From positions 1 to 11,763 of IMG/VR virus record IMGVR_UViG_2700989507_000007: a stretch of 11,763 nt of DNA; one strand, 5' to 3'. The stretch comes from a virus (Duplodnaviria; Heunggongvirae; Uroviricota; Caudoviricetes). How positions within the stretch are numbered: position 1 is the first letter of the stretch; the number at the start of each line of letters is the position of its first letter. Under the pieces are notes generated by a model, which saw only the letters and a list, made by a program, of their open reading frames with translations, had not been told where the DNA came from and searched no databases. Both the position numbers and the translations under genes were made by a program. Below, piece by piece: positions 1 to 7,466 of this stretch.

Positions 1-170
1 ATGAGCTGATTTTTCCGTCCCTTCGCAGGGCAAACCTGGCGCTGCGCAGGGCGAAAAGTGATGTTCAGAAGTGGGAGCGAGTCTGCGCCGCGCTGCGGGA
101 GCTGAACAAGCACCGGGATATTGTTCGGCAGATTGTCGATTCATCCGGTCGTATTGTGTCGGAAAAGTGA
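1..170 (+). CDS. 3' end of an ORF that starts left of the window (hypothetical phage protein, last ~55 aa)
   Basis: Frame in phase with position 3 stays open to TGA at 168-170; tail translates ...RELNKHRDIVRQIVDSSGRIVSEK. Start is outside the window; family not recognised. Confidence 0.3.
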   Translation, partial: ELIFPSLRRANLALRRAKSDVQKWERVCAALRELNKHRDIVRQIVDSSGRIVSEK

Positions 171-185
171 TTGCCGGAGGCGCTT

Positions 186-578
186 ATGGCAAAAGTATTT
201 ACACCAGAAGAGCGGGAAGAAGTGAAGGCGCGCATTGTGGAATTCGTGCGCCTGAGCGGACGAGAAACTTTTCGACAACTGGCAGATAAAACGGGTGTCA
301 GTAAGACCGCTATTCGTCGTTTATCTGGTGCGCTTGCGGCCAGTGGTGATGTCTGGCTCTCTGGTTGCGGGGTATTTCTATCAGAGCAGGCGTATCGCGT
401 ATGGCGCAAGACACCGGAGAAGGCTGCTGACCCGACACTGATTCGAAAGTTACCTGACGGAGAAATACGTCGTTACAACAGACGGCAGAACATAATTTGT
501 CGTGAGTGCCGCCAGAGCGAAGTTATGCAGCGTGTGCTGGCGTTCTATCGGGGTAATTTTCAGGAGGTGATGGAGTGA
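186..578 (+). CDS. hypothetical phage protein with an HTH-like segment (LADKTGVSKTAIRRL)
   Basis: Track ORF 171..578; preferred start is ATG 186 with GGAGG at 176-180. Stop TGA 576-578 overlaps the next gene's GTG start (GTGA coupling). Confidence 0.55.
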   Translation: MAKVFTPEEREEVKARIVEFVRLSGRETFRQLADKTGVSKTAIRRLSGALAASGDVWLSGCGVFLSEQAYRVWRKTPEKAADPTLIRKLPDGEIRRYNRRQNIICRECRQSEVMQRVLAFYRGNFQEVME

Positions 579-874
579 GGGTGAGGGTTTATATCGCCGG
601 TCCGATGACCGGGTATAAAAATTTCAACCGTGAGGCGTTCAACAAGGCGGAAGAGGAACTGAAACGGGAAGGGCATACAGTCTTAAACCCGGCAGTACTT
701 CCGGACGGGCTGACACAGCCGCACTACATGGATATTTGCATGTCAATGATACGCTGCGTGGATGCGATTTACATGCTGAAAGGCTGGCAGCGGTCGGCAG
801 GCGCTAAGGCAGAACTGGCACTGGCGGAGAAGCTGGGGCATGCAGTTATTTTCCAGGAGGCAAACAGTGAGTAA
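575..874 (+). CDS. DUF4406-like protein (nucleoside 2-deoxyribosyltransferase-like fold), 99 aa
   Basis: Track ORF 575..874; N-terminal VYIAGPMTG motif typical of this family; AGGAGG-like site at 562-567 before GTG 575. Family name is from memory. Confidence 0.55.
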   Translation: MRVRVYIAGPMTGYKNFNREAFNKAEEELKREGHTVLNPAVLPDGLTQPHYMDICMSMIRCVDAIYMLKGWQRSAGAKAELALAEKLGHAVIFQEANSE

Positions 875-1331
875 CCAATGGCGACCAGATATTTGCCCAA
901 TAACCGGACGTGCATTTTTCATGTGGATTGAGCATCCGAAATTGGGAAATGTACCGACGTATGGTGGCCCATTAGACAGTTACACCATTCCAACAAAGGA
1001 CAGCGATGGTGAGTTTTCGTGTGAGCGTTACGATCATGATTTCGGTGGCTGGGTAGAAAGCGAATGTCTAGGGTTATATCTGATTGATGATGAAGAACAA
1101 TGCAGAGTCTACGAACTCAAGGAGCGCGTTAAAGAGCTGGAAGCGCGGGAAGTTCATTTACCGACTCGCTACGGCCTTCGATATGGACATCCGATAAATG
1201 CTGATGAGCGCCACGTCATGATACCTAAAGAAAATGGCTGCTGGATTTATCTGGCTGATTTAGAGCACGTACTACGTGTTGCTGGTATTCGCATCAAAGG
1301 GGAGGAGCATGGAAATCAAACCAGAAGATGA
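867..1331 (+). CDS. hypothetical phage protein (~154 aa), ends ...AGIRIKGEEHGNQTRR
   Basis: Track ORF 840..1331; preferred start GTG 867 with AGGAGG at 855-860 (6-nt spacer), just before the upstream stop at 872-874. Confidence 0.5.
   Translation: MSNQWRPDICPITGRAFFMWIEHPKLGNVPTYGGPLDSYTIPTKDSDGEFSCERYDHDFGGWVESECLGLYLIDDEEQCRVYELKERVKELEAREVHLPTRYGLRYGHPINADERHVMIPKENGCWIYLADLEHVLRVAGIRIKGEEHGNQTRR
1281..1300 (+). repeat. gene-boundary repeat copy 1 (GCTGGTATTCGCATCAAAGG)
   Basis: 19/20 nt identical to 4341-4360; both sit at the 3' end of a gene encoding ...AGIRIKGE, just before the next gene's ATG. Confidence 0.6.
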
Positions 1332-1665
1332 GTTAAGTAATATTGTTTTATTTCCGGTAAAAGAGGATGACCCACGTAATCAGGTTAATTTTCTTTATGA
1401 GCCATCGGAAAGACCATATTGTCATCACGCCTCTGTCCGGGTTGACGAAAAAGAGCGTCAGGTCCGTTGTAAAATCTGCGGTGCAGTTGTGGAGACGTTT
1501 GACTGGATGCTCTCTGTGGCAAAAAGAGAAACCAGACTGGCAGATGATGTAAGGCTCTTGCGCCAGGAGGAGCGGGAAAGGCGAAAAAATATAGAAAAGC
1601 TAATTCAGATTGAGCGTAACGCGAAAGCGCGGATACGCAGGGCGACAAAATCCAGAACTGAATAA
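1309..1665 (+). CDS. hypothetical phage protein with a putative zinc-ribbon (C-H-H ... C-x-x-C) and a basic coiled-coil tail, 118 aa
   Basis: Track ORF 1276..1665; ATG 1309 preceded by a purine-rich AAAGGGGAGGAGC; overlaps the 3' end of the upstream gene. Confidence 0.5.
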   Translation: MEIKPEDELSNIVLFPVKEDDPRNQVNFLYEPSERPYCHHASVRVDEKERQVRCKICGAVVETFDWMLSVAKRETRLADDVRLLRQEERERRKNIEKLIQIERNAKARIRRATKSRTE

Positions 1666-1734
1666 TTAAATTTAGCTCTGTTAAAAATTTAATCCTTAAC
1701 CGGAGGGATTTCTGCACCCTCAGAACATCAGGAG

Positions 1735-1752
1735 GCCGCCCGAAAGGGCGGT
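1735..1752 (+). promoter_or_regulatory. GC-rich hairpin (GCCGCCC-GAAA-GGGCGGT, GNRA-type loop) between a Shine-Dalgarno-like site and the start codon of the next small ORF
   Basis: 7-bp stem with one G-U pair seen directly; CAGGAGG at 1729-1735 and ATG at 1759. Folding would bring the SD to ~6 nt from the ATG. Confidence 0.35.
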
Positions 1753-1758
1753 AGTTAA

Positions 1759-1932
1759 ATGCGAAAGTTTAAAATAATTATTGAAACGGGAATAGCCGGT
1801 GGAGATTTCGAGGATGAATTCGAAGTGGATGATGATGCGACGCCTGATGAAATACATGACGAAGCAAAAGATATTTTCTTTAACTACTGCAATTACTCAT
1901 ATCACGAAATAAAAGACGAAGAGGAGGAATAA
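1759..1932 (+). CDS. small very acidic protein, 57 aa (MRKFKIIIETGIAGGDFEDEFEVDDD...KDEEEE), ~20 D/E residues
   Basis: Not in the track (<60 aa). ATG 1759, TAA 1930-1932; the next ORF starts 2 nt later behind a GAGGAGG site. Confidence 0.4.
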   Translation: MRKFKIIIETGIAGGDFEDEFEVDDDATPDEIHDEAKDIFFNYCNYSYHEIKDEEEE

Positions 1933-1933
1933 A

Positions 1934-2110
1934 ATGGCTGATTTTGGTTCAACTAAATACAGCGTCAGTTTTGAAGAATGGCATGAACTGTTAATGGACT
2001 ATGCAGAGTTACGTGGTGGCAGTGCTGCTGATGCTGAAGCATGGCGTGATGATTATGAAGCAGGGAAAACTGCGGTCGAAGCATATTGTGATGAGTGGGG
2101 CGATGAATGA
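1934..2110 (+). CDS. small acidic protein, 58 aa (MADFGSTKYSVSFEEWHELLMDYAELRGG...CDEWGDE)
   Basis: Not in the track. ATG 1934 with GAGGAGG at 1921-1927; stop TGA 2108-2110 overlaps ATG 2107 of the next gene (ATGA coupling). Confidence 0.4.
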   Translation: MADFGSTKYSVSFEEWHELLMDYAELRGGSAADAEAWRDDYEAGKTAVEAYCDEWGDE

Positions 2111-2395
2111 GCGAGATTGACTATCAGGCGCTGCGTGAAGCAGCAGAGAAAGCAACTAAAGGATGCTACATCGTAGGGCATACATCGGGCAATCAGCATG
2201 GGAATATAACAGGAGTTTTTGTTTGTCAAAAATGGAAAGGAGAACCCGGTGGCGTGATTGCAGAATGTCATGTTAACTGCCTGGTTGAAACAGATGCTCA
2301 GGCTTACGCAAACGCTGAATTTATTGCTGCCTTTAATCCAAATGTTGCGCTGGCGCTTCTGGATGAACGGGAAAGAAACCAGCAATACATCAAAC
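2107..2395 (+). pseudogene. 5' fragment of an Ead/Ea22-like phage gene, interrupted by the IS element after codon ...YIK
   Basis: Track ORF 2107..2463 runs into the IS and ends on IS-derived codons; N-terminus MSEIDYQALREAAEKATKG resembles Ead/Ea22-like proteins (from memory). Confidence 0.55.
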
Positions 2396-2437
2396 TGAAC
2401 CGCCCCGGTTTTCCTGGAGAGTGTTTTATCTGTGAAC

Positions 2438-3325
2438 TCAGGCTGCCAGATCATCGTTTCTGATGGAAGCATAATAAGCTTTTTCTGCTTCTGCCGGAGG
2501 GATATGACCCAGCCTTCCCAGCAATCGTCGATTGTTATACCAGTCCACCCACGTGAGTGTGGCCAGTTCCACTTCTGCACGGTTTTTCCAGCTCTTACGG
2601 TGTATTACCTCCGCTTTGTAAAGACCATTGATGCTCTCCGCCATCGCGTTGTCATACGAGTCACCTGTACTCCCTGTTGATGCCAGCAGTTTTGCTTCTT
2701 TTAGTCGCTCCGTATAGGCCAGTGATACATACTGAGAACCTTTATCACTGTGATGGACTGTGCCGGACGGCCGACGGGCCCACAACGCCTGCTCCAGTGC
2801 ATCCAGCACGAATGTCGTTTCCATAGACGATGAGACTCGCCACCCCACGATACATCCGGCAAACACATCAATGATGAACGCCACATAGACGAAGCCCTGC
2901 CATGTGCTGACGTAAGTAAAATCAGCCACCCACAGCTGGTCAGGACGTTCTGCCACGAACTGACGGTTTACGCGGTCGCCTGCGGAAACGGCTTTCCGGC
3001 TGACGGTAGTACGGACCTTTTTACCCCGGAGAACACCGGCAAGTCCCATAACCGCCATGAGGCGCGCCACTGTACATCTGGCCACCCTGATACCTTCGCG
3101 TAACAACTGGCGCCAGACTTTACGCACACCGTACACCTGATGATTTTCATCGTATACGCGCTGTATCTCTCTCTTCAGCCAGTCATCGCGCTGAGCACGG
3201 GCACTGCGTTTATCAGGATGATGTCGCTGTTGCTGACAGTGGTAATACGTTGACGGGGCAATATGCAGTTCACTGCATACCGGTCCGACCCCGTACTGCT
3301 CACGCAGCTTATCCAGCAGCGGCAT
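2438..3325 (-). CDS. IS3-family transposase OrfB (catalytic domain), 295 aa
   Basis: Track ORF 2438..3325 (-); its ATG overlaps the orfA stop in the -1 frame, the classic IS3 orfAB arrangement. Confidence 0.85.
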   Translation of the reverse strand: MPLLDKLREQYGVGPVCSELHIAPSTYYHCQQQRHHPDKRSARAQRDDWLKREIQRVYDENHQVYGVRKVWRQLLREGIRVARCTVARLMAVMGLAGVLRGKKVRTTVSRKAVSAGDRVNRQFVAERPDQLWVADFTYVSTWQGFVYVAFIIDVFAGCIVGWRVSSSMETTFVLDALEQALWARRPSGTVHHSDKGSQYVSLAYTERLKEAKLLASTGSTGDSYDNAMAESINGLYKAEVIHRKSWKNRAEVELATLTWVDWYNNRRLLGRLGHIPPAEAEKAYYASIRNDDLAA

Positions 3326-3651
3326 TATTTTTTCCAGAGGCGGTCGAACTCCGCCTTCGCAAAATAAGCGGAAGCCTGGCGAAGGATATCGTTACTGCGG
3401 CGCAGTTCACGATTTTCACGTTCCAGCTCTTTCAGACGCTGACGTTCAGCGGTGGTGAGTCCACCATCACCACTCCCGGTATCCCGCTCATGCTGACGAA
3501 CCCACACACGCAGAGTCTCTGGTGTACAGCCAATCTTTGGGGCAATGGAACAAATTGCCGCCCATTGTGAGTCATATTCGCCCTGACTTTCCAGAACCAT
3601 ACGAACTGCCCGTTGACGGACCTCGGGGGAAAAACGTGTATTTTTAGTCAT
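3325..3651 (-). CDS. IS3-family transposase OrfA (HTH plus leucine-zipper part), 108 aa
   Basis: Track ORF 3325..3651 (-), [19 protein letters not shown]...; ends at an A6 slippery run (plus-strand T6 at 3328-3333) where the -1 frameshift into orfB is expected. Confidence 0.85.
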
Positions 3652-3705
3652 CCTGTTTACCTCTTTCTCAGGGAGTTTAGTCTCCAGGATTCCCGGGGCG
3701 GTTCA

Positions 3706-4367
3706 AACGCCGCGACCAGGAGAACGAGGATATTGCGCTAACGGTAGGGAAGCTGCGCGTTGAGCTTGAAGCAGCAAAATCAAAACTCAACGAGCAGCGT
3801 GAATATTACGAGGGAGTAATCGCGGATGGAAGTAAGCGCATAGCAGAACTGGAAAAACAATGCGCCGAATGGGAGCGAAAAGCATTAAGCAACTTTGAAG
3901 AGTGTGCTGCGATGGCTGAACGTATCGAAGAGATGCAGACAAAATCTGCACCAGATTCGTTTGGCATCATCGGTGAAAATATTCGAACACAGGACAATCG
4001 AATAACGTCAGATCCCATGTTTTGTGTGTATCAAAAGCGCGAAATCGTTGTTGATGCTGATTATGACCATGACCGGATTGTCTGGGTTGACGAAGATGGC
4101 AATGAAGCCAATAAACGCCATAGTCGTCGTCTCGAGCTACTTCATGAAAACTTTCGAGAGCCACCAGAAAAATGGCGGCGCGTTGCTGTGAAAGATATTG
4201 ATGAATTCGTTACCTGCTGTTTCACCGAACAGGGTTGTAAAGACTACCTGGCAGTCAATGGTCACAATCTTCGCTTGCCATTTATATATGTAAAAAGCGG
4301 TTTCAGGAACGCTGAATATATCGGCATAAGAAACTGGCTTGCTGGCATTCGCATCAAAGGAGAGTGA
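3706..4367 (+). pseudogene. 3' part of the IS-interrupted Ead/Ea22-like gene
   Basis: Frame is open from the IS junction (codons in phase with 3708) through track ORF 3912..4367, checked codon by codon. Removing the IS and one AAC copy joins 2107-2395 to this in frame (~316 aa). Coiled-coil middle; ends ...NWLAGIRIKGE. Confidence 0.55.
4341..4360 (+). repeat. gene-boundary repeat copy 2 (GCTGGCATTCGCATCAAAGG)
   Basis: See copy 1; followed by ATG 4369. Confidence 0.6.
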
Positions 4368-4368
4368 T

Positions 4369-4884
4369 ATGGCGTTAACACACCGCGAACTCTGTCAGAT
4401 TGCGTACAAGTTCCTTAAGCGCAACGGGTTCAAGGTTTGTTTTCATGACCGCTTTATAGCTGTAACCAGTACCGGAGAACAGCCAGATGCTATGGGATTC
4501 AGAAATTCAGCATCATGCCTGATAGAGGCGAAATGTTCTCGTGCTGACTTGTTGGCAGATAGAAAAAAGCGTTTTCGTAAAAATCCGTCTCTTGGAATGG
4601 GCGACTGGCGATTCTTTATTAGTGAGCCGGGAATTATTTCAATTGAGGATTTACCACCTGGCTGGGGATTACTTCACGTTGTTAACGGAAGAGTACGGAA
4701 AGTACATGGGTGGCCCAAGGGTAATTGCTGTTGGGGTAATCCTGACGATAAGCCATTTACTGGAAATAAGCAGGTTGAATGCGATTACATGTTGTCTGCA
4801 TTAAGGCGCATGGAGTTGAGAGGGCACCTTAATGAAATATATGACGGTGTAATTGTTAATAAGAAAGAAGGAAACGCGGCATGA
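4369..4884 (+). CDS. hypothetical phage protein, 171 aa; possible PD-(D/E)XK nuclease fold
   Basis: Track ORF 4339..4884; preferred ATG 4369 with GGAG upstream. Motif GEQPD-x13-EAK seen in the translation. Confidence 0.5.
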
Positions 4885-5225
4885 CCACTATTACCAGAGA
4901 GCAGTTAATAGCTCACGCAGAGGAGACTATTGAAGCACAGAGACTGTGTATACCGGGCACAATCGACCATGACATCATCCGCACATATAAGATGGATATT
5001 GCTGTTCTGGAAATCGCACTGGCATCGCTGGCAGCAGAGCCAGCCGGTAAATTGCATGAATACAAACCAGTGGGGTATCAGCGTCTGGTCGACGAGTTAA
5101 CTATGCAGGTAAAGCAGTTAGCCTGGCAACTGAGGAAAGCGAAGCCGGACTGCAAACTGCCGGATAAGGCGATGGACTACCTGGAGCGAAACGGACTGAC
5201 AAGCGTGGAGGATGTTTTACGATGA
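4881..5225 (+). CDS. hypothetical phage protein, 114 aa
   Basis: Track ORF 4881..5225; ATG overlaps the upstream stop (ATGA). Confidence 0.5.
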
Positions 5226-5305
5226 CCAGGCCTGAAGCATTCACAACGGTAGGAATTGCGATGGCGGTGGCGCTGGTGGTGTATTCGATTTGCCGCTGGG
5301 GATAA
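5222..5305 (+). CDS. possible small hydrophobic peptide, 27 aa ([27 protein letters not shown])
   Basis: Not in the track. ATG 5222 overlaps the upstream stop; one predicted membrane-spanning stretch. Weak support. Confidence 0.2.
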
Positions 5306-5315
5306 ATCGCCGAAA

Positions 5316-5349
5316 AAAGATCCCGACACAAACATGAGCCGGGATCTTT
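5316..5349. terminator. bidirectional rho-independent terminator between convergent transcription units
   Basis: 10-bp perfect stem AAAGATCCCG / CGGGATCTTT with a 14-nt loop; A-run upstream and T-rich tract downstream, so it carries a U-tract on either strand. Confidence 0.55.
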
Positions 5350-5432
5350 GATTTATATAGCCTACGAATCCGCCAGTAAGAGAGGGGGGGGCGGACGGTT
5401 AATTCTAACACCGGAATGATGTGGGTAAAAGT

Positions 5433-5732
5433 TTATAAGAAATCGGTTTCATAACTTTGCCCACCATGATAGATACCGACAATAAAGACTTTTCTGCCAT
5501 CAACGGCAAAAGCAATAATCGTTCTGTGGCGGAAATGAGTTACCCGCATCCCCTGGCGAATATCATCGCGTTTATTGCCCCGATGCGGGAATGTAGAAAA
5601 CCCATCAAGATAATCAAGAAGCGCATTGGCAAAATTGTCAGCAATGACGTTCCCTGCTTTCTCCGTTATATATCTGTGCAGGTTGATTATTTGTTCTTCG
5701 GCCTCAGGAGTAATGATGACTTCATATGTCAT
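5433..5732 (-). CDS. parE: ParE/RelE-family type II toxin, 99 aa
   Basis: Track ORF 5433..5732 (-); size and sequence character of ParE-like toxins; directly downstream of an RHH antitoxin gene on the same strand. Confidence 0.75.
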   Translation of the reverse strand: MTYEVIITPEAEEQIINLHRYITEKAGNVIADNFANALLDYLDGFSTFPHRGNKRDDIRQGMRVTHFRHRTIIAFAVDGRKVFIVGIYHGGQSYETDFL

Positions 5733-5737
5733 GCAGA

Positions 5738-5995
5738 TTACTTCCCGGATCGAATCGCGGCGCGAACCTGTGAAATGGAGCGTCCGTTGTTTGGGTTTTC
5801 GCGGATAGAATCAAGAGAGGGGGCGGCTGAATGCGTTAACCACGCTTCGATTGCTTTATCGCGCTCATTCAGTGCGCGAAGCCCTTCACGAATGACCTCG
5901 CTTTCTGAAGCATAGGCACCGGAAGCCACACGGGCGCGCACCATGTCAGCCATTTCGTTAGTTAATGTAATGCTGAATTGTTGGGTTGTACGCAT
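5738..5995 (-). CDS. parD: ParD-type (ribbon-helix-helix) antitoxin, ~85 aa
   Basis: Inside track ORF 5738..6058 (-); preferred start is the internal ATG (reverse complement of 5993-5995) with GAGG 6 nt upstream. Contains ASESEVIREGLRAL, typical of ParD/CopG antitoxins. Stop lies 5 nt before the parE start. Confidence 0.7.
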   Translation of the reverse strand: MRTTQQFSITLTNEMADMVRARVASGAYASESEVIREGLRALNERDKAIEAWLTHSAAPSLDSIRENPNNGRSISQVRAAIRSGK

Positions 5996-6130
5996 GGTAA
6001 ACCTCACGGAGTAGGATAGAACACCATTCGATGATAGCACGTTGCCTGTTGACGACAACAGAAATCAGAGACAATATTGCCGCACGCCAGCTTGAACAAC
6101 TGGCACCTGCTGCGCCAGCAGAGAAAACCG

Positions 6131-6403
6131 ATGGCGCACAATACCAAACATCACAATTCTGATATCGCCCCTGCCAGCAGGCAAGGGCGGTGTTCTCACA
6201 CATTCAAATATGACTGGTATCAGCACGATCCCTGCACTGAAGAACAGGCCGAATGGCTGATTCATAACTACCGCAGACGTGGGTATGAGTTTAAGAAAGC
6301 CCTTAGCCTCGACTACCGTCACTGGATAATCTACGTCAGGCTCCTTTATTCCGAACGCCCGCCGCGTCCGTCCCGCACATTCCAGCAACGCATCTGGAGG
6401 TAA
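6131..6403 (+). CDS. hypothetical protein, ~90 aa
   Basis: Inside track ORF 6077..6403; ends immediately before the DUF968 gene start. Weak RBS; coding status uncertain. Confidence 0.3.
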   Translation: MAHNTKHHNSDIAPASRQGRCSHTFKYDWYQHDPCTEEQAEWLIHNYRRRGYEFKKALSLDYRHWIIYVRLLYSERPPRPSRTFQQRIWR

Positions 6404-6404
6404 C

Positions 6405-7454
6405 GTGCGGGTATTACTTCGACCTGTTCTGGTACCGGAACTCGGGCTGGTGATCGTTAAGCCGGGCCGTGAATCCATGCCGGTATTCCACAATACCCGG
6501 GTACTGGTGGAGCCGGAACCGAAAAGCATGCGTAATCTGCCGTCCGGCATCGTCCCTGCCGTTCGCCAGCCGCTAGTGGAAGACAAAACATTGCTGCCGT
6601 TTTTCAGTAACGCTCGGGTGATTCGTGCTGCTGGTGGCGCTGGCGCATTGTCTGACTGGTTACTGCGCCATGTTAAATCCTGCCAGTGGCCACACGGCGA
6701 TTATCATCACAGTGAAACCGTTATTCACCGTTATGGTACCGGCGCAATGGTGTTGTGCTGGCACTGCGACAACCAGCTGCGTGACCAGACATCCGAATCA
6801 CTCGAGCAACTTGCTCATCAAAACCTGTCAGCATGGATGATTGACGTCATCGGTCACGCAATATGCGGTACGCAGGAGCGTGAATTATCTCTGGCTGAAT
6901 TATCCTGGTGGGCGGTCCGCAATCAGGTGGCGGACGCGCTACCGGAAGCGGTATTACGTCGTTCGCTGGGGTTGCGTGCGGAAAAAATCCGCTCAGTGTA
7001 CCGTGAAAGCGACATCGTACCGGGAGAGCAGACCGCCACCAGCATACTGAAGCAGCGCACAAAAAATATTGCGCTACCGCCTCACACCCACCAGCAACAG
7101 AACCCACCACAGGAAAAGACGGTGGTCAGCATTGCCGTTGATCCGGAGTCTCCGGAATCCTTCATGAAACGACCTAAACGTCGCCGCTGGGTAAATGAGA
7201 AATACACACGCTGGGTAAAGACACAGCCGTGTGCGTGTTGTGGTAAGCCAGCGGACGATCCTCATCATCTGATTGGTCATGGTCAGGGTGGAATGGGAAC
7301 AAAATCCCACGATATTTTCACGCTACCGCTGTGTCGGGAGCATCACAACGAGCTTCATGCGGATCCGCTGGCGTTCGAAGAAAAGCATGGTTCCCAGGTT
7401 GATTTAATTTTTCGTTTTCTTGATCACGCCTTTGCGACTGGCGTGCTCGGGTAA
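6405..7454 (+). CDS. DUF968-family prophage protein (YdfU-like) with a C-terminal Cys/His HNH-like motif, 349 aa
   Basis: Track ORF 6405..7454; GTG start with GGAGG at 6396-6400. C-terminal CACCG...DDPHHLIGHG...CREHHNELH. Sits directly upstream of rusA, as in known prophages. Confidence 0.7.
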   Translation: MRVLLRPVLVPELGLVIVKPGRESMPVFHNTRVLVEPEPKSMRNLPSGIVPAVRQPLVEDKTLLPFFSNARVIRAAGGAGALSDWLLRHVKSCQWPHGDYHHSETVIHRYGTGAMVLCWHCDNQLRDQTSESLEQLAHQNLSAWMIDVIGHAICGTQERELSLAELSWWAVRNQVADALPEAVLRRSLGLRAEKIRSVYRESDIVPGEQTATSILKQRTKNIALPPHTHQQQNPPQEKTVVSIAVDPESPESFMKRPKRRRWVNEKYTRWVKTQPCACCGKPADDPHHLIGHGQGGMGTKSHDIFTLPLCREHHNELHADPLAFEEKHGSQVDLIFRFLDHAFATGVLG

Positions 7455-7466
7455 AAGAGGTGACTG

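Follow-up and report, generated by a model that had tools for sequence, protein, structure and literature searches.

Two adjacent acidic genes in an E. coli prophage

We analysed an 11.8-kb stretch of DNA (11,763 nucleotides, nt; positions 1 to 11,763 of IMG/VR virus record IMGVR_UViG_2700989507_000007), hereafter the window, which derives from a lambdoid prophage of Shiga-toxigenic-type E. coli (STEC). It carries two adjacent short open reading frames (ORFs), ORF1 and ORF2 (Table 1), whose products are the subject of this work. The ORF1 protein is MRKFKIIIETGIAGGDFEDEFEVDDDATPDEIHDEAKDIFFNYCNYSYHEIKDEEEE and the ORF2 protein is MADFGSTKYSVSFEEWHELLMDYAELRGGSAADAEAWRDDYEAGKTAVEAYCDEWGDE. The original prediction described them as two tandem, very acidic small ORFs with about 20 aspartate or glutamate (D/E) residues in 57 and about 16 in 58, and few basic residues; both the counts and the coordinates were confirmed. 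ORF1 holds 9 D and 11 E (20 acidic residues, 35%), 5 K/R and 2 H, with an isoelectric point (pI) of 4.07 and a net charge of about -15. The corresponding figures for ORF2 are 7 D and 9 E (16 acidic residues, 28%), 4 K/R, 1 H, a pI of 4.05 and a net charge of about -12. No other window ORF of at least 45 aa (85 in all) is as acidic, and only these two have a D+E fraction of at least 0.22. Among 2,089 unique ORFs of 45-90 aa from 169 related loci their acidity ranks at about the 99th percentile or higher.

The ORF1 stop codon (TAA, 1930-1932) lies 1 nt ahead of the ORF2 ATG, and the ORF2 stop (TGA, 2108-2110) overlaps the ATG of an ead/Ea22-like gene at 2107 (ATGA). Upstream, a gap of 93 nt separates ORF1 from the gene ending at 1665. 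Thus, the proposed coupling of the pair with its neighbours holds at the ORF1/ORF2 and ORF2/Ea22-like junctions, but not between ORF1 and the gene before it. Similarly, of the good ribosome-binding sites assigned to both genes, that of ORF2 is canonical, with 6-nt spacing, whereas the AGGAGG of ORF1 lies 23 nt from its ATG with a hairpin between. The gene arrangement fits a translation of ORF2 that is coupled to that of ORF1.

The 57-aa form of ORF1 seen in the window is a minority allele, present at only 5 of 80 IMG/VR loci. At the other 75, CAA replaces TAA at 1930, resulting in a 60-aa protein (...EEEEQNG) whose gene overlaps the ORF2 start by 8 nt. By its family profile, ORF1 is an ordinary DUF7167 member, only 3 residues shorter than the common E. 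coli form.

Both reading frames are conserved genes

RefSeq annotates both proteins, that of ORF1 as a DUF7167 family protein. ORF1 matches the Pfam family DUF7167 (PF23768) with 55.3 bits (cut-off 24.4), its residues 2-53 aligning with model positions 1-60 of 60, and it matches phrog_1997 with E = 7.5e-31. ORF2 matches phrog_519 with E = 1.2e-20. Its residues 1-58 align with positions 76-137 of the 143 in the profile, and the existence of homologues 50-60 aa long confirms that this is a stand-alone domain.

Comparison of ORF1 with diverged homologues from Klebsiella-type phages gave synonymous differences per site (pS) of 0.66-0.96, which is saturated, and non-synonymous differences per site (pN) of 0.18-0.35. 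Of the changes between the window and the closely related locus L116, 9 are synonymous and 1 is non-synonymous. For ORF2, the per-site non-synonymous/synonymous ratio among haplotypes was ~0.3; these haplotypes come from loci picked via ORF1 and are hence unbiased for ORF2. The two-gene cassette, counted as present where at least 80% of bases 1725-2115 were covered, was found in 1,749 of 5,426 complete E. coli genomes (32%), at up to four copies a genome. ORF1 and ORF2 are real genes, both under purifying selection, and we read them as translated.

Decaying or meaningless ORFs that ride along in a mosaic region would be short, as both of these are, and the databases do hold many truncated or frameshifted copies; the window allele of ORF1 itself lacks three C-terminal residues. 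Against this, the protein is conserved across phyla, with 42% identity even in Enterococcus phages, synonymous change is saturated while non-synonymous change is low, and both proteins combine confident folds with high prevalence. The selection and fold results effectively refute the idea already, and we leave it almost no probability.

Conserved acidity and predicted folds

Net charge ranges from -16 to -6 (mean -12.6) among 42 ORF1 relatives and from -15 to -4 (mean -10) among 31 ORF2 relatives. In both families many positions are acidic in 80-95% of sequences. Examples of positions acidic in at least 80% are E9, D19, E22, D24-26, D38 and E50 in ORF1, and E14, E15, D33, D40, E42, E49 and D53 in ORF2. 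These alignments show that negative charge is maintained throughout both families and is no accident of this locus; the acidity is selected. The near-invariant or invariant non-acidic positions form a hydrophobic and aromatic core: F4, I8, F21, V23, I32, A36 and F40 in ORF1, and F13, W16, L20, A24, W37 and Y41 in ORF2.

AlphaFold2 models built from the family alignments were confident for both proteins. The ORF1 model (predicted local distance difference test, pLDDT, 87) shows a predicted beta-hairpin with strands at 2-8 and 17-23, followed by an amphipathic helix spanning residues 29-43; the acidic C-terminus is less ordered. The predicted topology is beta-beta-alpha, with a possible third strand at 46-51. 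The ORF2 model (pLDDT 88, predicted template modelling score, pTM, 0.71) is a three-helix bundle (13-26, 34-42, 47-55) with a predicted aromatic core of F13, W16, W37 and Y41. All four predicted helices carry acidic i/i+3/i+4 rows 157-172 degrees from the hydrophobic face, suggesting that the carboxylates point outward. Neither sequence has a hydrophobic segment long enough to span a membrane. Given this and the predicted outward acidic faces, we read both as soluble, compactly folded proteins with a predicted carboxylate-covered surface. The predicted folds of ORF1 and ORF2 differ, and we rejected the possibility that they are tandem paralogues.

The two families occur independently on mobile elements

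The DUF7167 core appears in ORF1 as MRKFKV.IET..GG....FEV.DDAT.EEI..EAK.IF.N.CNY..HEI, followed by the acidic tail. ORF1 relatives are found in Klebsiella, Citrobacter, Yersinia and Pseudomonas genomes, in Klebsiella Guernseyvirinae and in Enterococcus Herelleviridae (42% identity), and, by fold, in phAPEC8 and more distant phages. In Guernseyvirinae the relative overlaps the exonuclease gene and lies upstream of genes for a gp2.5-like single-stranded DNA-binding protein (SSB) and DNA polymerase; in Enterococcus phage MDA2 (Herelleviridae) it again overlaps an exonuclease gene. Elsewhere the neighbours are PolA, an SNF2-like helicase, a primase-polymerase or a C5 methylase.

Relatives of ORF2 share the core F.EW...L...A...GGS..D..AW..DY..G.TP.EAW.DEWG with other phrog_519 members and fall into 61 clusters at E <= 1e-3 among 1.84 billion representatives. 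In Ackermannviridae, including Kuttervirus, they are 52-58% identical to ORF2 and belong to a cluster of small ORFs that follows the major capsid gene. In P2-like prophages the relative directly follows replication gene A (gpA), downstream of Dam/Dcm methylases. Relatives are also present on 554 plasmids, of which 516 are conjugative. The IncI2 protein WP_000753050.1, found among others on mcr-1 plasmids, is 86% identical to ORF2; on pABC149-MCR-1 (NZ_KX013538.1) it is encoded at L176:1298-1474. The IncI2 operon runs from a CaiF/GrlA regulator through DUF1187, the ORF2 relative, SPFH and NfeD to the type IV secretion system (T4SS). Weaker relatives stand within long arrays of small genes on IncT/IncU MOBH plasmids; those of the P2-like prophages are also among the weaker ones.

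ORF1 and ORF2 are adjacent at no fewer than 74 of the 80 E. coli IMG/VR loci. In contrast, 29 diverged ORF1 loci have no ORF2 relative within 4 kb, ORF1 relatives stand alone in Klebsiella, Yersinia and Pseudomonas genomes and in Enterococcus phages, and the ORF2 relatives of Ackermannviridae, P2-like prophages and plasmids occur without ORF1. Since each family is found without the other elsewhere, the tight pairing is a feature of E. coli-type prophages only, and the two families are independent. The distribution marks ORF1 and ORF2 as two separate accessory genes of mobile elements.

These data also bear on whether the two proteins are subunits of one heteromer, with coupling ensuring equal amounts. 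Such a complex would be in keeping with the adjacency and coupling observed at 74 or more of the 80 E. coli loci and in roughly one-third of complete E. coli genomes. However, each family occurs alone beyond E. coli-type prophages, a close interface between two proteins as negative as these (-15 and -12) is less likely, and stop/start overlap is normal for all genes in these operons. We consider a heteromer improbable. A type II toxin-antitoxin pair was likewise rejected: both proteins are acidic, each occurs alone, and neither has a matching Pfam, NCBIfam or PADLOC entry.

The leader of ORF1 and its expression

ORF1 is preceded by an unusual initiation region (Table 1). Its predicted hairpin (1735-1752) has a 7-bp stem, GCCGCCC/GGGCGGU, closed by a GAAA loop, and an in-frame TAA (1756-1758) stands immediately 5' of the ATG. 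If the stem forms, the 23 nt between AGGAGG and ATG shrink to an effective ~7 nt. The element is kept in essentially all E. coli loci, where C-to-U variants still pair as G-U. The same Shine-Dalgarno (SD)/hairpin/AUG unit is found 5' of an unrelated gene for a 72-aa membrane protein (MTTLFRKEYP...; L002:5296-5393) in the Stx2 phage ArgO145 and 17 other loci. A hairpin-bridged Shine-Dalgarno/AUG arrangement has been described for phage T4 genes 38 and 25, and the unit looks like a portable initiation cassette of this type. The hairpin lacks a U-tract and is not terminator-like, and an Rfam scan of 1666-1758 returned no match. No promoter was found near the leader and no terminator upstream of ORF1; together these fit expression of ORF1 from the early operon.

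Genomic setting

By blastn, the chromosome of strain 2013C-3342 aligns with window positions 1-2395 at 99.3% and with positions 3703-9715 at 97.3%. There, genes for a LexA-family repressor, cro, YdaT, a DnaT-like replication protein and P are followed by DUF1627, DUF977, DUF4406, two hypothetical proteins, DUF7167, a hypothetical protein and ead/Ea22-like, and then by RelE/ParD, DUF968, RusA, DUF1133 and a DNA methyltransferase. From this gene order we place ORF1 and ORF2 in the rightward early operon rather than the classic early-left region, with replication genes on one side and the late-gene regulator region on the other. In ArgO145, the ORF1-ORF2 block lies in the leftward region, with Ea22-like genes on either side; downstream of it come a toxin-antitoxin pair, a methylase, xis and int. 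The assignment of the pair to an early region is therefore right insofar as the genes belong to phage early operons; here they occupy its post-replication (nin-like) rightward part, and it is the ArgO145 copy that is early-left. The 118-aa phrog_1621 gene upstream accompanies the cassette both in the window prophage and in ArgO145.

Ea22-related sequence lies on both sides of the cassette, at 867-1331 and 2107-2395. The upstream segment resembles the Ea22 C-terminus (phrog_250 positions 171-241), and the downstream piece corresponds to the Ea22 N-terminus. This bracketing suggests that Ea22-like genes may act as recombination linkers, shuttling the cassette between leftward and rightward early regions. 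Linkage of the two families to Ea22 recurs, yet is not universal.

Such linkage could mean that the proteins are developmental modulators of the Ea22/exo-xis type, biasing the lysis-lysogeny decision or prophage induction. In E. coli an Ea22-like gene invariably comes next after the cassette, its start overlapping the ORF2 stop; in Klebsiella phages and at locus L112 the relatives of ORF1 stand immediately behind Ea22-like genes; and the ArgO145 cassette sits leftward between recombination genes and int. Ea22-like genes, however, are simply very common in such regions. Moreover, virulent lineages carry ORF1 (Guernseyvirinae, Herelleviridae, phAPEC8) and ORF2 (Ackermannviridae); these lineages are strictly lytic. 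ORF2 is present as well on conjugative plasmids, which make no lysogeny decision. We give a developmental role little credence.

The gene neighbourhoods are also relevant to a role in the element's own replication or recombination machinery, in which the proteins would be accessory factors rather than host inhibitors, for example an acidic adaptor that tunes a basic phage SSB, annealase, exonuclease or primase. Consistent with this, ORF1 relatives lie inside replication modules (in Guernseyvirinae, in MDA2 and near the PolA, SNF2-like helicase and primase-polymerase genes), the window pair comes after the DnaT-like and P replication genes, and the P2-like ORF2 relative comes after replication gene A. 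On the other hand, the adjacent replication genes vary in every lineage, leaving no constant partner; the neighbours in E. coli prophages and IncI2 plasmids (Ea22-like, DUF1187, SPFH) include no replication enzymes; and the Ackermannviridae relatives of ORF2 stand in the small-ORF cluster after the major capsid gene. An accessory role in replication or recombination is rather doubtful.

The ead/Ea22-like gene is interrupted in the window by an IS629-type insertion sequence; uninterrupted, it encodes 315 aa in strain 2013C-3342. The terminal inverted repeats of the element start TGAACCGCCCCGG, and an AAC duplication is present at 2393-2395 and 3706-3708. Its transposase ORFs lie at 3325-3651 and 2438-3325, with an ALIL frameshift pseudoknot at 3254-3370. 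The same operon region holds further accessory genes, among them a RelE/ParE-ParD pair, an orphan methyltransferase and a TerB-domain gene. Two tRNA genes and the small RNAs (sRNAs) STnc100 and AgvB are all downstream of the methyltransferase and TerB-domain genes. Four window ORFs (3912-4367, 4339-4884, 4881-5225 and 6077-6403) had no Pfam or PADLOC match.

Table 1. Features of the window and their positions.
Feature	Position	Strand	Remarks
ORF1, 57-aa acidic protein	1759..1932	+	Pfam DUF7167 / phrog_1997; RefSeq WP_001224661.1
ORF2, 58-aa acidic protein	1934..2110	+	phrog_519, no Pfam family; RefSeq WP_000753068.1
ORF1 leader	1730..1758	+	AGGAGG 1730-1735, predicted hairpin 1735-1752, 6-nt spacer
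Shine-Dalgarno GAGGAGG of ORF2	1921..1927	+	inside last ORF1 codons, 6 nt before ATG 1934
Upstream neighbour, 118-aa protein, phrog_1621	1309-1665		zinc-ribbon-like C..HH...C..C motif, basic coiled-coil tail
ead/Ea22-like gene, 5' part	2107..2395	+	Pfam Ead_Ea22 E = 1.6e-27; cut at 2395 by IS629
IS629-type IS3-family element, 1,310 bp	2396-3705	-	inserted in the ead/Ea22-like gene starting 2107
RelE/ParE-ParD toxin-antitoxin pair	5433-6058	-	accessory genes, same operon region, opposite strand
Orphan DNA methyltransferase	8960-10018	+	accessory gene
Two tRNA genes	10059-10131, 10215-10288	+	Rfam
TerB-domain protein	10388-10891	+	accessory gene
sRNA STnc100	11060-11252	+	Rfam
Anti-GcvB sRNA AgvB	11253-11314	-	Rfam; abuts STnc100 on opposite strand

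A candidate role as nucleic-acid decoys

Composition had led the original prediction to a DNA-mimic or anti-defence role, which is plausible and compatible with our data. Low pI and high D/E content, a criterion for DNA mimics, were found in both proteins. We tentatively favour the reading that each protein is a stoichiometric polyanionic decoy bound to the nucleic-acid-binding surface of a host protein, a possibility that we take seriously while stopping short of calling it probable. Their position puts both genes on the early-operon transcript, which runs rightward downstream of the replication genes in this prophage and leftward in ArgO145; the decoy would be made soon after the element enters or is induced. 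By occupying the nucleic-acid-binding surface it would keep the host protein off the element DNA, so that the incoming or replicating element is protected. Candidate targets may include a restriction or other defence nuclease, RecBCD/AddAB, RecA and a nucleoid protein. Each protein would act alone, and the E. coli cassette would unite two functions that do not depend on each other, with no obligate complex.

The conserved charge, the acidic faces, the location in phage early operons and the ORF2 relatives on conjugative plasmids all speak for decoys. ORF1 relatives stand repeatedly near exonuclease, SSB/annealase, polymerase and primase genes, which suggests that its target may be of the nuclease or recombination type; phages of Gram-negative as well as Gram-positive hosts carry the family, which suggests a conserved target. 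ORF2 occurs in virulent phages, temperate phages and conjugative plasmids, suggesting that it may counter a barrier met by all incoming DNA. Anti-restriction and establishment genes are distributed across these same three kinds of element.

Several points weigh against decoys. Neither protein is linked to any target, and a single chain of 57-58 aa is large enough to mimic no more than a few base pairs, unless several chains assemble. High acidity is also seen in proteins that are not mimics. Neither sequence nor fold similarity to a known mimic or anti-defence protein was found, and related phage records (megablast matches) annotate a Gam-like nuclease inhibitor. Both families are absent from the EVADES tables (268 anti-defence proteins) and from the Silas accessory-gene screen and the plasmid leading-region supplements, in each case as far as these sources are readable as text. 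The sole published prediction for phrog_519, a machine-learning PaCRISPR anti-CRISPR score in Kuttervirus (PMC9409062), is a weak one. Anti-defence genes of a plasmid leading region fall among the ~30 ORFs closest to oriT on the leading side, with the transferred strand as template (PMC11541004). Counting ORFs from the intergenic region on the mobC side, the ORF2 relative of pABC149-MCR-1 is roughly number 25 and lies on the non-relaxase side, with oriT and the direction of transfer as we infer them. The IncI2 gene, which heads the SPFH/NfeD/T4SS operon, is transcribed away from this putative oriT, an orientation atypical of leading-region anti-defence genes. We judged the leading-region argument ambiguous and did not count it as support.

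The wider claim, that DUF7167 and phrog_519 are two new minimal (~57 aa) nucleic-acid-mimic folds forming a two-gene counter-defence cassette against a conserved host nuclease or restriction barrier, we regard as unlikely. A literature search returned no paper with DUF7167, DUF1187, the accession numbers or the peptide motifs. Both families are already catalogued (DUF7167, phrog_519, RefSeq) with no recorded function, and if decoys they would be new families of a known kind. At present they are a well-characterised pair of hypothetical proteins rather than a discovery.

A counter-defence decoy function would place either protein among the smallest decoys known and give it an unusually wide distribution: 32% of complete E. 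coli genomes have the cassette, a close relative of ORF2 is carried by hundreds of the IncI2 plasmids that spread colistin resistance, and the ORF1 family extends to phages of Gram-positive hosts. It would also bear on predictions of the strains in which a given phage or plasmid can establish itself, and the few known DNA-mimic folds would gain two more. Otherwise, these are two very common mobile-element genes with confident predicted structures, cheap and worthwhile targets for screening.

Comparison with known systems

Searches of Pfam, NCBIfam and PADLOC gave no match to Ocr, ArdA, KlcA/ArdB, Ral, Lar, Gam, PsiB, DinI or defence components; with PHROGs included, only DUF7167, phrog_1997 and phrog_519 were returned. 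Ocr was not matched in Pfam at E <= 1 by ORF1, ORF2 or the 31 ORF2 relatives, and no Ocr chain appeared in profile searches of the Protein Data Bank (PDB) at E <= 10. No PDB sequence match to either protein was better than E = 0.1, and no solved structure was similar in fold. The best PDB profile matches, ribosomal protein L23 for ORF1 (E = 0.1, a resemblance of beta-alpha motifs) and the ribbon-helix-helix ORF56 protein for ORF2 (E = 0.21), were not significant. The locus does not have the layout of an anti-CRISPR acr-aca pair: the downstream gene is Ead/Ea22-like and the upstream neighbour encodes a zinc-ribbon protein.

Ocr (T7 gp0.3) and ArdA have about 25-30% D/E. Like them, ORF1 (35%) and ORF2 (28%) are strongly acidic, encoded by mobile elements and probably expressed early. 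Ocr is an all-helical protein of 116 aa and ArdA a three-domain protein of 166 aa, and both form elongated dimers imitating 24-42 bp of DNA. In contrast, ORF1 and ORF2 are half their size or less, and ORF1 is not all-helical in its predicted fold. No match to them was found in sequence or fold, size and predicted folds are incompatible, and a relationship of either protein to Ocr or ArdA was rejected.

Smaller phage proteins come nearer. T7 Gp2, a 64-aa RNA polymerase inhibitor with a negative strip and a beta-beta-alpha-beta topology, and the RecA modulators of the DinI/PsiB type found on prophages and plasmids each use a negative surface to bind a host enzyme that handles DNA. They too are small acidic alpha/beta proteins of mobile elements, and the predicted topology of ORF1 is of that general type. 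T7 gp5.9, a 52-aa acidic mimic that blocks RecBCD and whose gene immediately precedes exonuclease gene 6, and phi29 p56, a 56-aa protein of small beta-sheet-plus-helix structure that blocks uracil-DNA glycosylase (UDG), are of the same size class and charge as ORF1 and ORF2. ORF1, as modelled, shares with p56 a small fold of beta-sheet plus helix. The Guernseyvirinae relatives of ORF1 are, like gp5.9, encoded upstream of an exonuclease gene, and by analogy T7 gp5.9 is the closest counterpart of ORF1.

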